From Escherichia phage LQ5, in the sequence record OR677401: a stretch of 64,000 nucleotides of DNA. The stretch is one strand, 5' to 3'. The position numbers were made by a program, and so were the translations under genes. Positions 13,797-64,000 of this stretch are shown one piece after another. The notes beneath the pieces are model-generated. The model was not told where the DNA came from. It saw nothing but the letters and a program-made list of their open reading frames with translations, and made no database searches. The stretch's first letter is position 1; each line of letters starts with the position of its first letter.

Positions 13797-14029
13797 GTAT
13801 TGCAATTTATATTAAATCTGAGTCATGTGATTCTTACCTGTATTCCTATGATACCGGAACATCAGAAGAGAAAATTAAAGAAGACTTAGAAAGCGATATG
13901 GATATGTTCTGTCCTATTGGTGACTATATGCTTCAAGTGTCTGATAGTGAAAGTCCATCATCAGAAAATAGACTTCAAATTATTATGCAAGATATTTTTA
14001 AACAATCATGGGAACGAGACGATGAGTAA
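13793..14029 (+). CDS. hypothetical acidic protein
   Basis: 78-aa ORF, coupled start. Confidence 0.5.
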   Translation: MSIAIYIKSESCDSYLYSYDTGTSEEKIKEDLESDMDMFCPIGDYMLQVSDSESPSSENRLQIIMQDIFKQSWERDDE

Positions 14030-14471
14030 GAAAGTGAAAGAACTATCTGCCGGTATTTTATTCATGACCGTTGATAAAGAACTGGTCATGGGCCGTGTAA
14101 CAGGCTCTCGTAATCCAGAGAATATGCGTCATAAATGGGACATTCCTAAGGGTCATGTCGAACCAGGCGAAGAGCCTATTCAAGCGGCAATGCGCGAAAC
14201 CGAAGAAGAGATTGGATTCACAGCATACGATCCTGCATTCCTGAAAGACCTAGGTGAGTTCAAATATTCAAGCAATAAGAATCTACATCTGTTCTTATAT
14301 ACAGTGCCTGTGGAACACGAGCAGTTCAAGGATTGCAAATGTACGGCTTACCATACATTCCCTGATGGTCGTACTATTCCTGAATTCGATGCGTTCGCCT
14401 TGATTAAACGTCCGCAATGGGAATATGTCATGGGTAAGTCGATGTTTAAGGTTTTAGATTCGCTCTTTTGA
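14022..14471 (+). CDS. nudE: Nudix hydrolase (NudE-like)
   Basis: Nudix box GHVEPGEEPIQAAMRETEEEIGF; immediately upstream of lysozyme e; start 14022 overlaps upstream stop. Confidence 0.75.
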   Translation: MSKKVKELSAGILFMTVDKELVMGRVTGSRNPENMRHKWDIPKGHVEPGEEPIQAAMRETEEEIGFTAYDPAFLKDLGEFKYSSNKNLHLFLYTVPVEHEQFKDCKCTAYHTFPDGRTIPEFDAFALIKRPQWEYVMGKSMFKVLDSLF

Positions 14472-16989: not shown

Positions 16990-17517
16990 ATGAAATTTTT
17001 AACTCCCATTTATCTAACCTTAATGCACGCCTTCGCTGAACGCGCCATTGAACGTTTAGACTCAGACCAATATACCTGGTATGAACCTGCTTCAAGAATG
17101 CAAGAGTTTGGTACTCTTCGACTTGATGGCGGACGCCAAACAGGTAAAACAAGTGCCCTTGCTCAGTTCGCCGCTGATTGGGTTTCCAAGGGTAATGATG
17201 TGATTGTTATGTCGAGTTCTTCGCATCGCTCGCGAGAAATTTGTAATGTAATAAAACAGGTTTCTAAGGCACACCCACATCTCCAAGTCGAAGGTCCTGG
17301 TTTTGTTGTCTATGATACTGTGCGCAGTTTCCTTGATGAAGACAATTTCCATAAGTATCGTGGACTATCTGTTACTCGATTATTGATTATTATCGAAGAG
17401 CCAATGCGCCTTCCAGCGATGGATAAGTTCTATGAAGCTTACCAGGTAATGATTAATAAATTTATGTGCCAAGGCGACAAGCCTTTGCCTCTGTTCTTTG
17501 TGATAGGAATGCAATGA
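16990..17517 (+). CDS. small P-loop NTPase
   Basis: Walker A GGRQTGKTS and Walker B-like LLIIIEEP; ATG 16990 after AAAGGAAA. Confidence 0.6.
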   Translation: MKFLTPIYLTLMHAFAERAIERLDSDQYTWYEPASRMQEFGTLRLDGGRQTGKTSALAQFAADWVSKGNDVIVMSSSSHRSREICNVIKQVSKAHPHLQVEGPGFVVYDTVRSFLDEDNFHKYRGLSVTRLLIIIEEPMRLPAMDKFYEAYQVMINKFMCQGDKPLPLFFVIGMQ

Positions 17518-17810
17518 TGACTGATGAAGAACTTTTTGAGTTCTGTTATTTCTCACGTAAGGTTCGAAGAGAGGACCTTACTGCAAATTTCGAATATGCT
17601 TATTTCTATCCATTAGAATATGTATTCATGACAGGGCCCTTTAAGGGCTCTCGTTTTAGATGTCATGCTCCTAGTATCCGATTAATGAAACAGGTTCCTT
17701 ACTTCACTCTCGAGTTCATCTCAGGGCCTTGTAAGGGTATTATTGCTCGTAGTCTCTTGACTTATGACCAAGAGATTCATATGATTTCTGATTGGAAAAA
17801 ATATGTCTAA
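17514..17810 (+). CDS. hypothetical protein
   Basis: Start overlaps upstream stop (ATGATGA). Confidence 0.5.
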   Translation: MMTDEELFEFCYFSRKVRREDLTANFEYAYFYPLEYVFMTGPFKGSRFRCHAPSIRLMKQVPYFTLEFISGPCKGIIARSLLTYDQEIHMISDWKKYV

Positions 17811-18021
17811 ATTGACAATTGAAGGTTCTGAAGAAGCTCTGAAAAGATTTGTTGAATGGCTTAATGGACCAGGTGAACAAGACTTTCTGGAAGTCTGGGA
17901 TGGCGGTCGGTGGAATGGTAAAGAAATGATTTACCCGACTACCTATATCTCCGTGCAAGGTTGGACTGAAGGCCTTCGTTTGGTAGAATATGATATCGCA
18001 ACTGGCGAGGAAGTGAAATGA
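17803..18021 (+). CDS. hypothetical protein
   Basis: 72-aa coupled ORF. Confidence 0.5.
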   Translation: MSKLTIEGSEEALKRFVEWLNGPGEQDFLEVWDGGRWNGKEMIYPTTYISVQGWTEGLRLVEYDIATGEEVK

Positions 18022-18296
18022 TTGAAGATATCAAGGGTTATAAGCCGCATACCGACGATAAAATCGGTAAAGTAAACGCTATCAAAGATGCTGAAGTTCG
18101 TCTTGGGTTAATGTTTAAAGCTCTGGAAGAAGAACATGTTACTCATTATATGAACTTAGATACCGAAGAGGTTTCTGAACAAGAACTAGACCAGGCTCAT
18201 GAACGCATCACCCAGATTCGTAATGCAATTGACCGTCTGAAAGAAGCAAGCATGTGGGCGTGTCGTTCCGTTTTCCAACCCGAGGAAAAATACTGA
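18018..18296 (+). CDS. hypothetical acidic protein
   Basis: 92-aa coupled ORF. Confidence 0.5.
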   Translation: MIEDIKGYKPHTDDKIGKVNAIKDAEVRLGLMFKALEEEHVTHYMNLDTEEVSEQELDQAHERITQIRNAIDRLKEASMWACRSVFQPEEKY

Positions 18297-18505
18297 TGAA
18301 AATTGAAAGTTTACAAGATTTCCAGCGTATCATCGGTGAAGCCTGTACTGGCTACCACAAATACTTGCTTGATGACCGAATGGCCTGTCTTGAAGAAGGT
18401 GAAGTACAGTATGCAGCCCAACGCCTTGAACAGGTGAAAGAGTTTTACCCTGTACTGGTAGAAATTTGTTCAGCTGCTGGAAAACTTACCCCATTCCAAG
18501 AATAA
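18296..18505 (+). CDS. hypothetical protein
   Basis: ATG 18296 overlaps upstream TGA; ORF-track start 18254. Confidence 0.5.
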   Translation: MKIESLQDFQRIIGEACTGYHKYLLDDRMACLEEGEVQYAAQRLEQVKEFYPVLVEICSAAGKLTPFQE

Positions 18506-18509
18506 AGCA

Positions 18510-18560
18510 GTTTACATCTCCTGTAGACGTGGTACTATAGACCTATCAACTACAGGAGAT
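18510..18560 (+). promoter_or_regulatory. promoter/stem-loop cassette, same arms as 15699
   Basis: GTTTACATCTCCTGTAG ... TGGTACTATAGACCTATCAA ... CTACAGGAGAT. Confidence 0.65.
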
Positions 18561-18566
18561 TACAAA

Positions 18567-19025
18567 ATGTCAGAAATTAATTCAGAAGTATTCATCCGCC
18601 GCAATAAATTACGTCGTCAGTTCGAAACCGAATTCCGTGAACTGAATACGTCCATCAAAAAAGCCGCCATCAAGAGCGGAGTCCCAGCCTTCTTTATTAA
18701 GTACTCTAATCACTTGTTGGACCGTGCTATCCAACGTGAAATCGACGAAAAATACGTTTTTGCTTTATTCAAGCAACTCCATAACCATGTTAAAGAAATT
18801 CATGAATTTTTAATCCAGGAACCTCTACCTGATGTAGAATCCGAAATTGTCCCTGGTAAAGTGTATCGTCCATTGCGTCTCGAAATTACCGATAAAACCT
18901 TATGGCTAGGTATGACAGTAGACCGTAAACATCCTGATAAAGGATATTCCCTTAAATGTCGTATGGCATTTGTTAACTCTAAACGTTTAGAAGGTAAAAC
19001 CAGCACGAAAGTAATCTATCTTTAA
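18567..19025 (+). CDS. regB: RegB-like endoribonuclease (tentative)
   Basis: 152 aa; size and position between denV and tk as in T4; sequence match from memory only. Confidence 0.5.
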   Translation: MSEINSEVFIRRNKLRRQFETEFRELNTSIKKAAIKSGVPAFFIKYSNHLLDRAIQREIDEKYVFALFKQLHNHVKEIHEFLIQEPLPDVESEIVPGKVYRPLRLEITDKTLWLGMTVDRKHPDKGYSLKCRMAFVNSKRLEGKTSTKVIYL

Positions 19026-19037
19026 TAATGAGGTCTC

Positions 19038-19577
19038 ATGAAAAAAGTATTAGCCACTTTACTATTGACAGTTAGTATGTCTGCCCATAGCGTAGAGCCT
19101 ACTTTCAGTAATGAACAACTCGATAATTTACATTATGCGTATGCTTTCGGTGAACAATACCAAAAGTCGGGAAAGTTCAAAGAAAACCCTAATCAAAAAG
19201 GATTAGGATATATTATGGCCGGATTACTATGGCAGGAATCATCTGCCGGAATTAATCAGGGTTTAAATAAAGATAAGCACCATGCTTATGGCATGTTCCA
19301 AAATTACTTGCCTACGTTAAGAAGTCGTGTTCAACAGGTAGGTTGGAAGATGTCTGATAAAGAAATAATCCGTATGGTCCAAAAACGACAGAACAGTGCC
19401 TCTTGGGCCTACATTGAACTGTCTTATTGGATTGATGTTCACAAAGGTGACCTGAGAAAAGCGATTGCTTCTTATAATGCGGGCTGGAACGTCAAAGTAG
19501 GCAGTAAATATGCTTCTGAAGTTCTAGAAAAGGCCAATTATCTAAAATCTAAAAAGATGTTTGAGGCGGTGTATTAA
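19038..19577 (+). CDS. secreted protein with lytic-transglycosylase-like motif
   Basis: Signal peptide MKKVLATLLLTVSMSA; motif ASYNAG. Confidence 0.5.
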   Translation: MKKVLATLLLTVSMSAHSVEPTFSNEQLDNLHYAYAFGEQYQKSGKFKENPNQKGLGYIMAGLLWQESSAGINQGLNKDKHHAYGMFQNYLPTLRSRVQQVGWKMSDKEIIRMVQKRQNSASWAYIELSYWIDVHKGDLRKAIASYNAGWNVKVGSKYASEVLEKANYLKSKKMFEAVY

Positions 19578-19934
19578 ATGATTAAGCAGATGACTATAGC
19601 GCTTATGTTGATTGCTCCGGGAGTATTAGCGTCACAAGTTGGTGATAGTAATAATTCAATTGTCGAGTATGCTACCCGTACAGCAAAAGATTATTGTCAT
19701 CCGAGCAATACTGAATGCATTATCGAATTCAGTTCAAAAATCACAGCTGCTTTTAAAGATGGCCAGAACGACGTAGAGCATCGCCGAATGAAAGAGAAAA
19801 CTCTTTCTAAAAGATACGAGCAACGTCTAAACGTTACTGAATGTATTCCATCTGATAAAAAGTACAAAGAAATGTGCGCGTCTATGGTAGACAGACTCGT
19901 TGACTCATACAACCGAGGATTAAACTCTAAATGA
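19578..19934 (+). CDS. secreted hypothetical protein
   Basis: Signal-peptide-like N-terminus; several Cys. Confidence 0.5.
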   Translation: MIKQMTIALMLIAPGVLASQVGDSNNSIVEYATRTAKDYCHPSNTECIIEFSSKITAAFKDGQNDVEHRRMKEKTLSKRYEQRLNVTECIPSDKKYKEMCASMVDRLVDSYNRGLNSK

Positions 19935-20398
19935 TTATTGATTATATTAAGGGCGATATCGTCGCCCTGTTTCTTCAAGGTAATAATGTTGCACACGGGT
20001 GCAACTGTTTCCACACAATGGGTTCAGGTGTAGCTGGGCAATTGGCTAAGGCTTATCCGCCTATTCTCGCTATCGATAAAACTACTTATTTAGGCAATTT
20101 GGCAAAACTTGGCACGTTTACTCAAGCTACAGGTAATAATGGCCAAATTTGCTATAATTTATATACCCAATACGAACCAGGCCCTAATCTTGATTATGGT
20201 GCTTTAGTAAACTGTATGATAGAATTAAATCAACAAGCAAAAGGTCTTTTGTTTAAACCAAGAATTTATATCCCTCGCATCGGTTGTGGTATTGCTGGTG
20301 GTGATTGGGACAAGGTTTATCAATTGATTAATTTGTTTACTCCTGATATTAATTTAGTGGTGGTAGATTATGAAAGCACATTACCCGCATCCGTTTGA
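19931..20398 (+). CDS. macro-domain protein (ADP-ribose binding/processing)
   Basis: Motifs GDIV...NCFHTMGSGVAGQLAKAYP and IPRIGCGIAGGDWDKV resemble macro-domain signatures. Confidence 0.65.
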   Translation: MIIDYIKGDIVALFLQGNNVAHGCNCFHTMGSGVAGQLAKAYPPILAIDKTTYLGNLAKLGTFTQATGNNGQICYNLYTQYEPGPNLDYGALVNCMIELNQQAKGLLFKPRIYIPRIGCGIAGGDWDKVYQLINLFTPDINLVVVDYESTLPASV

Positions 20399-20582
20399 CC
20401 CTAAAAATAAAGCGGAAATTATTCGACACTGGACTGAAACACGAGTAACTAAATGCCCTATAAAAAGTCAACACAACACCGATAAATGGTATATTGGTGA
20501 ATATGTTGAGTATACTTTTATAGATAAAAATAAACGTAAACAGCATGTAGAAGAATATTGCTTAAAGGTGCAATGGTTATGA
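20370..20582 (+). CDS. hypothetical protein
   Basis: 70-aa ORF overlapping macro gene end. Confidence 0.45.
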   Translation: MKAHYPHPFDPKNKAEIIRHWTETRVTKCPIKSQHNTDKWYIGEYVEYTFIDKNKRKQHVEEYCLKVQWL

Positions 20583-20752
20583 GTCTGAGTAAAGAACAGA
20601 AAGATAAATTGTTTGAGCTTATCCATGAGCTTATGGAACTCAACATAGAATGTGAATTTGATAACTCTCTGGATTGGGATTGGAGAGGTGGTGAAGAGGA
20701 TGAGTTTTCTAAAAAGGAAAATGAATTAATTGCTTATGTAAATAGTCTTTAA
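20573..20752 (+). CDS. hypothetical acidic protein
   Basis: Probable ATG 20573; ORF-track start 20558 is alternative. Confidence 0.4.
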   Translation: MVMSLSKEQKDKLFELIHELMELNIECEFDNSLDWDWRGGEEDEFSKKENELIAYVNSL

Positions 20753-20761
20753 GAAGGTAAT

Positions 20762-21334
20762 ATGGCTCAACTTTATTTTCATTATGCGGCGATGAATTCC
20801 GGGAAAACCGCTTCATTGCTAACGGCAGCTCATAACTACAAAGAACGTGGTATGGGCGTACTCCTTTTAAAGCCTGCGATAGACAATAGAGAATCAAGCC
20901 ATAGCATTTCGTCTCGTATAGGGATTAGTCAAGAGGCTAATGCCGTGACTCCGGATATGGACCTATACGAGTTCTATCGTTGGGCTGAATCTCAAAAAGA
21001 TATCCACTGCGTATTTGTGGATGAAGCACAGTTCTTAGAACCTGCACAGATAAAACAACTGGCAAAGATAGTAGACAATTATAATGTTCCGGTTATGTGC
21101 TATGGGCTAAGAACTGATTTTCAGGGTAAACTGTTTCCTGGCTCTGCTGAATTACTCGCTACGGCAGATAAACTCGTTGAGTACAAAGGTGTGTGCCATT
21201 GTGGCCGTAAAGCTACTATGACTGCTAGGGTCCAGGATGGTATCGCAATTAAGGACGGCGCCCAAGTTTCTATAGGTGGCAACGATTCTTACGTGTCATT
21301 GTGCAGGAAGCACTGGATAGAAATAACGAGTTGA
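20762..21334 (+). CDS. tk: thymidine kinase
   Basis: Match to recalled T4 Tk (YAAMN.GK.ASLL.AAHNYKERGM.VL.LKPAID). Confidence 0.9.
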   Translation: MAQLYFHYAAMNSGKTASLLTAAHNYKERGMGVLLLKPAIDNRESSHSISSRIGISQEANAVTPDMDLYEFYRWAESQKDIHCVFVDEAQFLEPAQIKQLAKIVDNYNVPVMCYGLRTDFQGKLFPGSAELLATADKLVEYKGVCHCGRKATMTARVQDGIAIKDGAQVSIGGNDSYVSLCRKHWIEITS

Positions 21335-21341
21335 GGGTATT

Positions 21342-21620
21342 ATGGACCTAAATTCAAAGATTTTAATTCTAGCGTTCGCTGTGGCTATTTCTTATATTGT
21401 TCTTTCGCCTATCATGGATGATGTGGCTTACAAAAGAGAGATAGAGGTTGTAGCAGCGACGTATAATGCTAATAATAAAGAATGTCCTAATAAAAATGGG
21501 ATGGATTTAATTAAAGCGCATTATATGCTTTCCATTACCTCGCCTATACAGAGGAATTGGGTTGAATATAATTTTAACGACGTGTTCTATTCTTATTGTC
21601 GTAAGCTTAAAAAGCTATAA
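21342..21620 (+). CDS. hypothetical membrane protein
   Basis: 92-aa ORF with N-terminal hydrophobic segment. Confidence 0.5.
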   Translation: MDLNSKILILAFAVAISYIVLSPIMDDVAYKREIEVVAATYNANNKECPNKNGMDLIKAHYMLSITSPIQRNWVEYNFNDVFYSYCRKLKKL

Positions 21621-21623
21621 ATA
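21616..21623 (+). promoter_or_regulatory. T4-type late promoter TATAAATA
   Basis: Exact octamer ~90 nt upstream of rI-like gene. Confidence 0.4.
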
Positions 21624-21712
21624 ATAATACTAACCGTAGAGCTTTAGCTTTTGGTAATCGCTATCGGTTAAGGCCGAAAGGCAAATAGTATAAAACAACA
21701 AAGGACTTTTGT

Positions 21713-22006
21713 ATGGGTATTTTCCGTACAGCGGCTTGTATCCTTATGGCGGGATGTTTAAGCCCTACAGTTTCACTAGCAAATGGTGCCAATGATAAAT
21801 TGATGGATGCATTTGCTAGTAGTGCGATGCCTGTTTATGCGCAAATGAGTAGACCCAGCGTAAAGGCCTCCGAAGACTATTGGGCCTATGTTACGGCTTC
21901 CTGGAAGATTTCAAGTTGTCGGACTATAGAAGCGTGTTCAATTGAAGGTCGGGCCATCGGAGAGCGTTATGTAAAACTAATGAAGGTGGAAGATGAAGTT
22001 CAATGA
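21713..22006 (+). CDS. rI: rI-like lysis-inhibition regulator (periplasmic antiholin)
   Basis: 97 aa as T4 RI; signal-like N-terminus; position after tk. Confidence 0.6.
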   Translation: MGIFRTAACILMAGCLSPTVSLANGANDKLMDAFASSAMPVYAQMSRPSVKASEDYWAYVTASWKISSCRTIEACSIEGRAIGERYVKLMKVEDEVQ

Positions 22007-56700: not shown

Positions 56701-56713
56701 CTTGGAGAACAAA

Positions 56714-57031
56714 ATGAAAACCATCGACTGTAAAGCAGAATATAAAGTGTATTATCACGGAAGTTGTAGTGTTGCTAATATCGGTAATATGCTTTGTCCT
56801 CCTGAGGAGACAGGAGTTCTGTCTGAAACCGGTCGTAAGAAAAACCTAAATCGTGTGTTCTTTACTGAAGATATCGGTTTGGCTAAGATTTATGCTGGAC
56901 GTGCAGCTCGTTCAGTGGGAGGAGAACCCCGTCTTTATCGTGTAATTGCTCCGGTGGATGTGGTTTGTTTAAATGATACTAAAGGCGCTACGGTTTATCA
57001 TGCTGAATGGGCCTTCTGCGAGGAAATCTAA
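56714..57031 (+). CDS. hypothetical protein
   Basis: ATG 56714 after GGAG; ORF-track start 56702. Confidence 0.5.
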   Translation: MKTIDCKAEYKVYYHGSCSVANIGNMLCPPEETGVLSETGRKKNLNRVFFTEDIGLAKIYAGRAARSVGGEPRLYRVIAPVDVVCLNDTKGATVYHAEWAFCEEI

Positions 57032-57367: not shown

Positions 57368-57607
57368 ATGAATATCGTACTAATGAAACCAACTCCTAGC
57401 TCTTTTTGGAATAAATCTTTCGGTAAGCATAATATGTTTATCCAACGTACCGTAAACAACTGGGAACTAGTTCTTTCAGTGGGCCACAACGATTATGAAC
57501 AAGAATACGTAGAGTTCTTCGAATTTCCTGTGAAGCCCACTAAGCGTCAGATTCGTCAGACAAAACGTAAATTCCGTAAAATTTCTTTGGAAGATTCATT
57601 AAAATAA
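57368..57607 (+). CDS. hypothetical basic protein
   Basis: 79-aa ORF. Confidence 0.5.
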   Translation: MNIVLMKPTPSSFWNKSFGKHNMFIQRTVNNWELVLSVGHNDYEQEYVEFFEFPVKPTKRQIRQTKRKFRKISLEDSLK

Positions 57608-57608
57608 A

Positions 57609-57649
57609 GTTTACAACGGTCTATGGTAGTGATACTATGGACCTATCAA
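57609..57649 (+). promoter_or_regulatory. early-type promoter cassette (GTTTACA + TGATACTATGGACCTATCAA)
   Basis: Read directly. Confidence 0.6.
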
Positions 57650-57666
57650 CTACCGAGGAGAACATT

Positions 57667-57960
57667 ATGAAAAAGTTATTAATCGCAGCAATCCTTACAG
57701 TAGCGTCATGTGGCACGGCTCCAGTTACGGCTGGATTGGATAAAGACCTTTGTGAATGGTCTATGACTGCAGACCAAGAATCGGTTGAACATCAGATTTA
57801 TGCTGATATCATGAACATCACTAAACGCGACCGCCCTGATATGGTTAAAGAAGTGTCAGACCAATTGGCTTCAAGCGGTGTTATGCAATATAACTATGTT
57901 TTGTATTGCGATGCCAATTTCGATAACAAAAATATCGTTAAAGAGGTGACAGGTGAATAA
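57667..57960 (+). CDS. sp: Spackle (Sp) periplasmic superinfection-exclusion protein
   Basis: Signal/lipobox MKKLLIAAILTVASC then GLDKDLCEWSMTADQ ... GVMQYNYVLYCD matching recalled T4 Sp; ATG 57667. Confidence 0.7.
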   Translation: MKKLLIAAILTVASCGTAPVTAGLDKDLCEWSMTADQESVEHQIYADIMNITKRDRPDMVKEVSDQLASSGVMQYNYVLYCDANFDNKNIVKEVTGE

Positions 57961-58393
57961 GATTAACAGAAATTTAGTTATCAAAAAACTTCGTTGTAAA
58001 AATCCAAATGCACAAGCATACAGGATGTTTTGGAGCGACGACCACCAATACCTAGGTTATTTTCTTGTTGATAGCGATGATCGAATTACAATGGCTCATA
58101 AACTTCTTAACAGAGAATTAAACCATTGGCAAGAACTTATTGCGGTGAGGTCTAAATTATTTTCTCGCAATACAATGCACCAATTGGTTTATTTTTTCGC
58201 CGAAGGTATTCCTGACAAGGTTGAGTTTGATGGATTCGAATTTAAAGACATCCTCCCAGACAACGAATTGAACGACCGCGTTAATATGGACATCCCTAGC
58301 AAGTATATCAAAAACAGTCTGTTGAAAATTCTGGAAGCTCCGGTTTATTCAATAGATGACCAGATTTTTAATGCCTTTATGAATCGAGGTTAA
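57953..58393 (+). CDS. hypothetical protein
   Basis: 146-aa ORF. Confidence 0.5.
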   Translation: MNKINRNLVIKKLRCKNPNAQAYRMFWSDDHQYLGYFLVDSDDRITMAHKLLNRELNHWQELIAVRSKLFSRNTMHQLVYFFAEGIPDKVEFDGFEFKDILPDNELNDRVNMDIPSKYIKNSLLKILEAPVYSIDDQIFNAFMNRG

Positions 58394-58394
58394 T

Positions 58395-58616
58395 ATGTTT
58401 GTCTTAACTCAATTCTCTAAAGCCGTGTATAGTTACTCTTGTCAGTGGGAAGTCTTTATCGATTCTCCTTCACCTAAGTATGGTGTTTTTGGACGAGTAA
58501 CTACTCAAGCTTATGTCGCACGGCCGACTAAGCGCCAGCTTCGTAAACTTAAAAAGGCCCATCGCCAACTGATTGAGAGAAGGGAACAATATGAGTGCAA
58601 TGTGTACGGGCTCTAA
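58395..58616 (+). CDS. hypothetical protein
   Basis: 73-aa ORF. Confidence 0.5.
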   Translation: MFVLTQFSKAVYSYSCQWEVFIDSPSPKYGVFGRVTTQAYVARPTKRQLRKLKKAHRQLIERREQYECNVYGL

Positions 58617-58798: not shown

Positions 58799-58960
58799 AT
58801 GAAATCTTTTAAAGAAGTTATGAACGAAGATATGGTCGCAGGCGATGCAGGTGGAAACCCATCTAATATTGCCTCCGGAACTACCTCAGGCGCAGTCGTC
58901 AACAAAGGGCCTGAACAAATCCCATCTAAAAAGCGTAAAGAAAAATCCGAAAACGAATGA
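58799..58960 (+). CDS. small Gly/Ser-rich basic protein (53 aa)
   Basis: ATG after AGGAGCC; late promoter upstream; below ORF-track cutoff. Confidence 0.45.
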   Translation: MKSFKEVMNEDMVAGDAGGNPSNIASGTTSGAVVNKGPEQIPSKKRKEKSENE

Positions 58961-60286: not shown

Positions 60287-60943
60287 ATGAATTACGAAAA
60301 AATATACCAGGAATTAATATCTAAAGGAAAATTAAGAGGTTCTAAGCGGTCTTTATCATATTATACGGAAGAACACCATGTTATACCTAGATGTATGAAT
60401 GGTTCTGATGATAAAAACAATTTAGTTGCTTTATTGCCAAGAGAACACTTTGTAGCTCATAGGCTTTTAACAAAAATATATCCCGAAGTAAAAGGTCTAC
60501 ATTATGCTGTTAATTTAATGAGATATAATAAAGGAGTTAAATTAACTAGTAGAACTATAGCCACGTTAAGAGAAAATAACGCTAAAGCATTTTCAGGAAA
60601 AAATAACCCGATGTTTGGTAAACCTTCCTGGATTAGAGGGATGAAAACTCCTGAAGAAACTAAAGCCAAAATGCGCCTGGCTCATAAAGATAAAATTATA
60701 TCTGATGAAGCCAAGGCCAATATGAGTAAAGCTAGAAAAGGAAGATTTAGTGGTAAAGATTCCCCTAGATATGGTTTACCGAATCCTAGGCGTGGAGAAA
60801 TATGGAATAGTTACGATATGCTTTACGAATTATGGGTTTACAATAATAAACCTAAACGCACCAAATTTAATAAAATAGCTGTTGATAATGGATATCCTGA
60901 TATTTGTTATCGACGAATGATAGAAAACTTTAATAGGAAATAA
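60287..60943 (+). CDS. HNH homing endonuclease (Mob-like), free-standing
   Basis: YTEEHHVIPRCMNGSDDKNNLVALLPREHFVAH; paralog of 479-1129. Confidence 0.8.
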   Translation: MNYEKIYQELISKGKLRGSKRSLSYYTEEHHVIPRCMNGSDDKNNLVALLPREHFVAHRLLTKIYPEVKGLHYAVNLMRYNKGVKLTSRTIATLRENNAKAFSGKNNPMFGKPSWIRGMKTPEETKAKMRLAHKDKIISDEAKANMSKARKGRFSGKDSPRYGLPNPRRGEIWNSYDMLYELWVYNNKPKRTKFNKIAVDNGYPDICYRRMIENFNRK

Positions 60944-63447: not shown

Positions 63448-64000
63448 ATGAACATCGAACAAAAATGTCTTTATCAAGACCGAATCAATTCCAAATTCTC
63501 AAAACACGAACAGAATCTTTTAGAAAAATGTCTGGATGCTAAAAAAGACCCTAACTTCCATTACGACCTTGACAAACTGGTTCGCAAGCATGTTACTTCA
63601 GCGGTTCCAGTAGAGTTGTATCGTGGGATTACCACCAGAGAACTTGAGCAATTAGAGCTCCTTTCAGTAGGGTGTCAATGGTCTCCTGGTCGAGTTACTT
63701 CTTTTAGTACACAATACTCACAGGCTCGTCAGTTCGCAGGGGCATGGGAATATGGAACCAGAACCATTTTAAGTCTCAGGAATGCACCGTTCATTTTCGA
63801 CTACTATAACCATGCTATCGACCTTGTTCTTGCAGGGAATGTAGATGAGCTTGAAATAGATGAAACCCGTATAGACCTCTACGATATGGTCGAAACTGAA
63901 TGTGAGTTCATGGTCTCCAGCCAATCACGATTTGAGATTGTGGAAATCGAAACTATCAAAAGGGACCCGTACGAAATCGAGTACAAAACAATTCATTTAA
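63448..64000 (+). CDS. Mod-type ADP-ribosyltransferase, 3'-truncated by window end
   Basis: R-S-ExE arrangement (YRG ... SFSTQ ... ECEFM); position after soc as T4 modB/modA; no stop in window. Confidence 0.55.
   Translation, partial: MNIEQKCLYQDRINSKFSKHEQNLLEKCLDAKKDPNFHYDLDKLVRKHVTSAVPVELYRGITTRELEQLELLSVGCQWSPGRVTSFSTQYSQARQFAGAWEYGTRTILSLRNAPFIFDYYNHAIDLVLAGNVDELEIDETRIDLYDMVETECEFMVSSQSRFEIVEIETIKRDPYEIEYKTIHL

Follow-up and report, generated by a model that had tools for sequence, protein, structure and literature searches.

The tk.4 locus of phage LQ5

The 64,000-nucleotide (nt) stretch analysed here, one strand of Escherichia phage LQ5 (OR677401) and hereafter the window, contains a gene for a stand-alone macrodomain protein of 155 amino acids (aa), which occupies positions 19931..20398 on the + strand, with its ATG at 19931 and its TGA at 20396-20398; residue numbers below are those of this 155-aa product. 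The product and Tk.4 of phage T4 (NP_049723) are both 155 aa long and share 53% identity over residues 1-155 (expectation value, E=4e-63). T4 Tk.4 found no second match below E=1 in the window, so the gene is present in a single copy, and the T4 gene order vs-tk.4-tk.3-tk.2-tk matches that of the window. Because the identity extends over the full length, the match is the sole one in the window and the gene order is conserved, we identify the gene from its sequence as the single-copy syntenic ortholog of T4 tk.4, also called adfM, an identity that the initial annotation had missed when it placed a macro-domain protein at these coordinates. Besides their length and their position between vs and tk.3/tk, the T4 and LQ5 proteins have in common the motifs HGCN, LYTQ and PRIGxG. 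They differ in the second glycine-rich loop, which reads GAGIGKG in T4 and GCGIAGG in LQ5, and by three residues in the loop preceding strand 4, and the T4 cluster includes tk.1, which the LQ5 cluster lacks.

By its sequence, the window belongs to the genome of a T4-like phage in the genus Dhakavirus. Around the gene, a 2.5-kb stretch has 99.1% identity to phage vB_EcoM-E33 and 98.9% to phage QL01, and QL01 is collinear with the window across 40 kb. The annotation of phage Bp7 names this gene tk.4, in the order regB, vs.1, vs, tk.4, tk.3, tk.2, tk, and in QL01 the gene at the same position is labelled 'phosphatase'; the RefSeq label of T4 tk.4 itself is 'phosphatase; contains A1pp phosphatase motif'. 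The codon differences from Bp7 comprise seven synonymous and three non-synonymous changes, and those from QL01 six and one, respectively. Slightly varied forms of the tk.4 neighbourhood recur in Gelderlandvirus, Karamvirus and Roskildevirus. Out of 50,697 phage records, 2,733 carry a homolog of Tk.4; they include T4-like phages with many different hosts, Felixounavirus, and phages that infect Pseudomonas, Vibrio, Campylobacter and other hosts.

The gene is tightly packed between its neighbours. Upstream, vs (19578..19934, +), which encodes a valyl-tRNA synthetase modifier (PHROG 1256, E=2.7e-34; annotated in Bp7, QL01 and T4), overlaps its start, and downstream the start of tk.3 (20370..20582, +; Pfam DUF7202, E=7e-37; annotated in Bp7 and QL01) overlaps its last 29 nt. 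The translation start region, as read from the sequence (19915..19934, +), consists of a GAGGA Shine-Dalgarno element (19915..19919), 11 nt 5' of the ATG, and of an ATGA (19931..19934) in which the start codon overlaps the stop codon of vs; this overlap suggests that translation of the tk.4 ortholog may be coupled to that of vs. The G+C content of the gene (37.8%) compares with 39.0% for the window. A promoter scan of positions 17500..22000 returned 14 sites against 12.7 expected, which is not above chance and adds nothing on timing, so that the label 'early region', given to this locus in the initial annotation, stands with synteny of the regB-tk block to T4 as its sole basis.

We also observed a terminator-like hairpin within codons 7-13 of the gene (19950..19968, +), with an 8-bp stem of -13 kcal/mol and a T-rich run after it. 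Synonymous sites keep the stem in T4 and Bp7; the hairpin is absent in Gelderlandvirus, Karamvirus, Roskildevirus and one Acinetobacter phage. As it is present only in T4 and Dhakavirus among the phages compared, we rejected it as a feature of the family.

Fold and predicted active site

Sequence profiles and the structural model both point to a genuine macrodomain of the ALC1/TARG1-like class, for which binding of adenosine diphosphate (ADP)-ribose is predicted. The product scores 33.4 bits (E=4.9e-8) with the Pfam Macro model (PF01661), for which the gathering cut-off is 22, over model positions 2-117 of 118, and PHROG 335, which is labelled phosphatase, matches at E=8.7e-67. When solved structures were searched with the single sequence, BT1257 came first (1e-8), followed by SCO6735, Poa1p, the DarG of Mycobacterium tuberculosis (Mtb) and TARG1. 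A profile of 61 homologs, with identity down to 36%, which also served for the conservation analysis, ranked BT1257 (2e-20), SCO6735 (6e-18), TARG1 (4e-17) and Poa1p (6e-15) highest in the PDB, with weaker matches to Mtb DarG (1e-10), Thermus DarG (4e-9) and a coronavirus Mac1 domain (2e-3). The AlphaFold2 model, with seven strands and five helices, has a mean predicted local distance difference test score (pLDDT) of 94.3 and a predicted template modelling score of 0.88. Compared with the PDB by Foldseek, it matches more than 50 solved macrodomains at probability 1.00 and template modelling scores (TM) of 0.66-0.77; TARG1 (E=5e-10), Poa1p (1e-9), BT1257 and DarG are the top matches, at TM ~0.72-0.77.

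Both glycine-rich loops that line the ADP-ribose cleft of macrodomains are present, namely the GxG loop that follows strand 2 and the diphosphate loop ahead of the last helix. Loop 1, NCFHTMGSGVAG (residues 25-36; 20003..20038, +), contains N25 (nt 20003..20005) and a G31-x-G33 motif, and aligns with 'CND..GGWGKG' of SCO6735 and 'VN..GVMGKG' of DarG. Loop 2, IPRIGCGIAGG (residues 114-124; 20270..20302, +), is the diphosphate-binding loop and contains G120 and A122. G33, G118 and G120 are invariant in the 61 homologs and G31 is conserved in at least 90% of them, and the two loops align with the corresponding loops of TARG1, DarG and SCO6735. The initial annotation had taken these same two motifs as hallmarks of a macro domain, and had named a missing profile match or the loss of the glycine-rich loop on alignment as grounds for abandoning the assignment. 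It was borne out: its reading frame is exact, both motifs lie where it read them, the profile search gave a match above a curated threshold, the fold is confidently modelled and matched by solved structures, and the loops are kept on alignment.

Correspondences between active sites were derived from profile-to-PDB alignments, an hhalign comparison with Thermus DarG and an eight-sequence alignment. According to these, Q80 (in LYTQ; codon CAA at 20168..20170, +) falls in the column of TARG1 Lys84 (LITK), DarG Lys80 (FPTK), SCO6735 Gln85 and the Gln of BT1257 (MIGQ), N25 (HGCN) in that of SCO6735 Asn27, and G120 (PRIGCG) in that of SCO6735 Gly128, while the catalytic Asp125 of TARG1 is matched by A122 (GCGIAGG). 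Q80, N25 and G120 are invariant in the homolog set, and T4 Tk.4 carries LYTQ and HGCN too. In SCO6735, the mutant Q85A is inactive, N27S is nearly so and G128E has reduced activity, and a water-mediated mechanism has been proposed in which the Gln positions the distal ribose (PMC9411070). Since the Tk.4 family has a Gln in the column of the catalytic Lys together with the Asn and the Gly that SCO6735 requires, we predict that it is mechanistically SCO6735-like, not DarG/TARG1-like. The mobile loop after Q80 has the length seen in DarG and TARG1, and the insertion of 5-6 residues found in SCO6735 and BT1257, described as a characteristic trait of their subclass (PMC9411070), is absent. We see an even chance that T4-type AdfM constitutes a third mechanistic kind of thymidine-ADP-ribose hydrolase, one that would combine a Gln-type site with the short DarG/TARG1 loop and would be independent of the Lys-type AdfM of phage PhiKZ. 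No active-site comparison for the T4 Tk.4 family was found in the literature that we examined.

The comparison with characterized macrodomains sharpens this picture. SCO6735 (PDB 5E3B) and BT1257 (PDB 2FG1/2AFC), which by profile are the best solved sequence relatives of the LQ5 protein, are likewise stand-alone and share with it the Gln at the position of the catalytic Lys, the conserved Asn and the GCG(L/I)AGG loop. However, identity is ~27%, both are cellular whereas the LQ5 protein is phage-encoded, and their mobile loop is longer. Human TARG1/OARD1 (PDB 4J5S) and yeast Poa1p (PDB 6LFQ) are the top structural matches (TM ~0.77) and resemble the LQ5 protein in the PRIGCG loop and in a His ahead of the loop-1 Asn/Ser position. 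TARG1, in contrast, uses a Lys84/Asp125 dyad where the LQ5 protein has Gln80 and Ala122, so that the TARG1 dyad is lacking, and Poa1p, whose chain is longer, acts as an ADP-ribose-1''-phosphate phosphatase.

The macrodomain of DarG (Mtb, 5M3I; Thermus, 5M31/5M3E), the natural eraser of the mark made by DarT2, has the same fold, class and Asn (Foldseek probability 1.00, TM ~0.72), but shares ~20% identity, has the Lys of FPTK instead of the Gln of LYTQ, and is followed by a C-terminal DarT-binding domain that has no counterpart in the LQ5 protein. DarG models give weak but specific matches (PADLOC, E=2e-6; NCBIfam NF048014, 20.8 bits), the latter over model positions 3-143 of 338, that is, the macro part. 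DarG proper was rejected for the missing catalytic Lys, the missing C-terminal domain and the NF048014 score, for which the cut-off is 250 bits; the gene adjoins vs and tk.3, not darT. PhiKZ gp104, also called AdfM, is a phage-encoded stand-alone macrodomain that counters DarTG2 as well, but it is DarG-like (E=9e-25 to Mtb DarG), keeps the lysine of FPTK, shares 20% identity with the Tk.4 profile (hhalign E=3e-10) and is imported into a phage nucleus, a structure that T4-like phages do not have. We therefore rejected close kinship with PhiKZ AdfM, which belongs to a separate, DarG-like lineage of Lys type. AdfB of phage ICP1 was likewise set aside as a relative, being a DarT-binding mimic and not a macrodomain.

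Probable counter-defence against DarTG2 and competing substrates

Previous work on T4 provides the most direct indication of function. When a T4 transposon library was screened on E. coli with DarTG2 (HIDEN-SEQ; M9 glucose, 30 C), tk.4 was the single significant gene, a clean tk.4 knockout was sensitised to DarTG2, and the gene was renamed adfM, for anti-DarT factor Macrodomain (10.1101/2025.11.20.689424). PhiKZ gp104 was given the same name independently, and removes DarT2-made ADP-ribose from DNA in vitro (PMC13309987). Against DarTG1, the known factor of T4 is the NADAR protein AdfN (PMC11825919). On DNA carrying thymidine-linked ADP-ribose, SCO6735 is faster than DarG or TARG1; it protects cells from DarT, and thymidine de-ADP-ribosylation has been proposed as the unifying activity of the class to which SCO6735 and BT1257 belong (PMC9411070). 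Orthology to T4 tk.4, whose knockout is DarTG2-sensitive, thus lends support to one suggestion of the initial annotation, namely that the protein might reverse DarT-like DNA modification. By analogy with T4, the most likely job of the LQ5 gene is counter-defence against DarTG2 by hydrolysis of ADP-ribose from thymidine in DNA, and we consider this function probable.

Counter-defence of this kind might proceed as follows. The protein would be made before or during replication, from the same-strand prereplicative block regB, vs.1, vs, tk.4, tk.3, tk.2, tk, a timing taken from synteny with T4. Host DarT2 would put ADP-ribose on thymidine of single-stranded phage DNA and stall replication; the macrodomain would bind that ADP-ribose between its two glycine-rich loops and hydrolyse the thymidine-ribose bond, so that ADP-ribose is freed and the template can be replicated again. 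With chemistry of the SCO6735 type, the attacking molecule would be water, and Q80, held by N25, would place the distal ribose for it. Elsewhere in the window, at ~13950..14400 (+), lies a gene for a NudE-type Nudix hydrolase, placed there by collinearity with QL01. According to work cited in PMC9503650, T4 NudE hydrolyses ADP-ribose, and we speculate that NudE could dispose of the ADP-ribose freed by the macrodomain.

Several points weigh against DarTG2 counter-defence by DNA hydrolysis. Identity to T4 Tk.4 is no higher than 53%, and loop 2 differs between the two proteins. The basic mobile loop, longer by five residues, to which the high DNA activity of SCO6735 and BT1257 has been tied (PMC9411070), is absent. 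Moreover, the T4 evidence comes from one preprint under special conditions, in which hydrolysis of DNA ADP-ribose by T4 AdfM was inferred from structural similarity to Mtb DarG, with no enzyme assay and no activity reported (10.1101/2025.11.20.689424). Finally, a comparative-genomics survey sees phage macrodomains more often targeting soluble ADP-ribose derivatives (PMC9503650).

This last point bears on the possibility that the substrate is a soluble derivative, such as ADP-ribose-1''-phosphate, O-acetyl-ADP-ribose or an ADP-ribose-derived immune signal. The survey argues that ADP-ribose-targeting domains of phages are likelier to counter such molecules (PMC9503650), Poa1p is among the best matches by both sequence and fold, RefSeq orthologs are labelled phosphatase with reference to the A1pp motif, PHROG 335 bears the label phosphatase, and JGI labels some homologs O-acetyl-ADP-ribose deacetylase. 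However, the phosphatase and deacetylase labels are inherited from an old name of the domain and were not measured, it is specifically on a DarTG2 host, where DNA is the target, that T4 requires its ortholog, and SCO6735 and BT1257, which come closest among the solved relatives, are members of the class whose proposed activity is thymidine de-ADP-ribosylation (PMC9411070). On balance, we regard a soluble substrate as unlikely.

A related question is whether DarT2 damage is one target only of a broader nucleic-acid eraser, which would also act on RNA or DNA ends or on bases modified by other host toxins. The TARG1 class does act on several nucleic-acid substrates (PMC11833690), and the wide spread of the Tk.4 family over phages of many hosts would be in keeping with such breadth. 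Yet DarTG2 sensitivity is the only phenotype reported for T4 tk.4 (10.1101/2025.11.20.689424), and in PMC11833690 the Results give SCO6735 as inactive on 5'-phosphate- and 2'-OH-linked ADP-ribosylation of RNA and DNA, whereas the Discussion credits it with activity on RNA phosphate ends. We consider a broad eraser quite improbable.

A further alternative is that DarT2 is neutralised mainly without catalysis, by binding or blocking of the toxin or by shielding of ADP-ribosylated sites. The catalytically dead Q85A mutant of SCO6735 still inhibits DarT in vitro, to a greater extent than dead DarG or TARG1 (PMC9411070), and ICP1 AdfB acts by binding DarT (PMC11481870). Against this, the phage family keeps without exception the residues that SCO6735 needs for hydrolysis, a pattern that speaks for catalysis being under selection, and the 155-aa LQ5 protein has no counterpart of the C-terminal domain through which DarG binds DarT. 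A chiefly non-catalytic role for the LQ5 protein therefore seems very unlikely, and hydrolysis of the DarT2 mark remains our preferred interpretation.

ModB-like and putative Arr-like ADP-ribosyltransferases and the adfA slot in the same window

The window encodes a Mod-type ADP-ribosyltransferase and a second, putative one. A ModB-like gene (63448..64000, +) runs off the end of the window; it matches PHROG 832 (RNA polymerase ADP-ribosylase; E=6e-37) and is 35% identical to T4 ModB (E=5e-21). Since 184 residues fall inside the window, compared with 207 aa in T4 ModB, most of the gene is present, and the initial annotation, which had reported the start of a Mod-type ADP-ribosyltransferase, was correct as to the type but not in taking the visible part for its start only. 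The Pfam scan of this open reading frame (ORF) gave no match; its translation shows the motifs LYRG, SFST and ECEF, which resemble an R-S-E signature.

The presence of this transferase in the window, and the fact that it and tk.4 both lie in same-strand blocks matching the T4 prereplicative region, would suit the idea, also put forward in the initial annotation, that the macrodomain edits phage-made ADP-ribosylation, either as an eraser or tuner of Alt, ModA and ModB marks on host proteins or by acting on ModB RNAylation. However, Mod and Alt are arginine-specific transferases of the R-S-E type, and Arg-ADP-ribose is reversed by hydrolases of the ARH/DraG type, not by macrodomains of the TARG1 class; by established knowledge, arginine-linked marks are not macrodomain substrates. 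In addition, 43 kb separate the two genes, no operon joins them and nothing was found that connects them, DarTG2 alone explains the phenotype of the T4 knockout, and homologs of Tk.4 occur in more than 2,700 phage records, including those of Felixounavirus and Pseudomonas phages, a count that covers Tk.4 and not Mod genes. Editing of Mod or Alt marks thus finds no support, and we would give it hardly any credence.

A second candidate writer is a highly conserved, putative mini ADP-ribosyltransferase of 105 aa (56714..57031, +; PHROG 2110, of unknown function) between gene 41 and dmd, whose program-listed ORF begins at a TTG at 56702. Its AlphaFold model (pLDDT 84.8) has Arr as best PDB match (E=0.019, probability 1.00), followed by KptA, tankyrase, pertussis toxin S1 and ParT, all of them ADP-ribosyltransferase folds, and the Pfam Arr-ms model matches below threshold (E=0.029). 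Sequence searches of the PDB with this protein returned nothing, so that the link to Arr and KptA comes from the fold search only; H15 and Y60 are invariant and E103 nearly so. Taken together, it looks like a minimal ADP-ribosyltransferase of the Arr/KptA type. The ORF occurs in 609 phage records, nearly all at 60-100% identity (10 below 60%), which range over distant T4-like phages from those of Escherichia to those of Aeromonas and Acinetobacter. T4 is not among the 40 records listed, but the annotated T4 stretch examined ends within dmd, and T4 may still encode the protein. In a few GenBank records it is named an ADP-ribosyl transferase; no study of it was found in the literature. Because relatives in the Arr/KptA branch modify small molecules and nucleic acids, not arginine, it could be imagined that the macrodomain serves in addition as eraser for this phage writer, the two forming a pair that acts on nucleic acids; we think this highly improbable.

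The window also differs from T4 at the position of adfA (T4 61.2), the gene of anti-DarT factor A and the other anti-DarT gene known besides adfM. In this slot, after spackle (57637..57960) and before 61.1 (58799..58960), lies an ORF of 146 aa (57953..58393, +; PHROG 8539). Compared with T4 gp61.2/AdfA, it has only the last 14 residues in common (SIDDQIFNAFMNRG), and these are 100% identical; the Pfam AdfA model gives 16.3 bits against a cut-off of 27, and a search of the window for adfA found only its last 14 codons. From its sequence, phage LQ5 thus seems to have no AdfA of the canonical kind, and it looks as if one cassette had been swapped for another in this slot while the 3' junction was conserved. 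Two paralogous DUF7279 genes (57368..57607 and 58395..58616, both +; each at ~E=4e-19) flank the pair formed by spackle and the slot ORF, and might act as repeats that mediate exchange of the enclosed cassette. Further downstream, gene 61 (primase) and gene 56 (dCTPase) enclose a 218-aa ORF (60287..60943, +) with an HNH-like motif (HHVIPR...); from the motif seen in its translation, it looks like a homing endonuclease. This is roughly the place at which T4 carries dam, flanked by 61 and 56, with segF immediately beyond 56.

As a discovery, the LQ5 gene carries little weight, as its family is already known and named from T4 tk.4/adfM and near-identical copies are present in public Dhakavirus genomes. 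What remains of value is the predicted Gln-type, short-loop active site, together with the two side observations on the adfA slot and the putative Arr-like enzyme. The Gln-type site offers a mutational handle, through Q80 and N25, on the mechanism of T4-type AdfM, for which we found no published measurement. For the family, the labels 'phosphatase' and 'hypothetical protein' could be replaced by 'anti-DarT2 macrodomain (AdfM-like)'. That more than 2,700 of the 50,697 phage records contain a homolog suggests that large virulent phages may widely face pressure from thymidine ADP-ribosylation.

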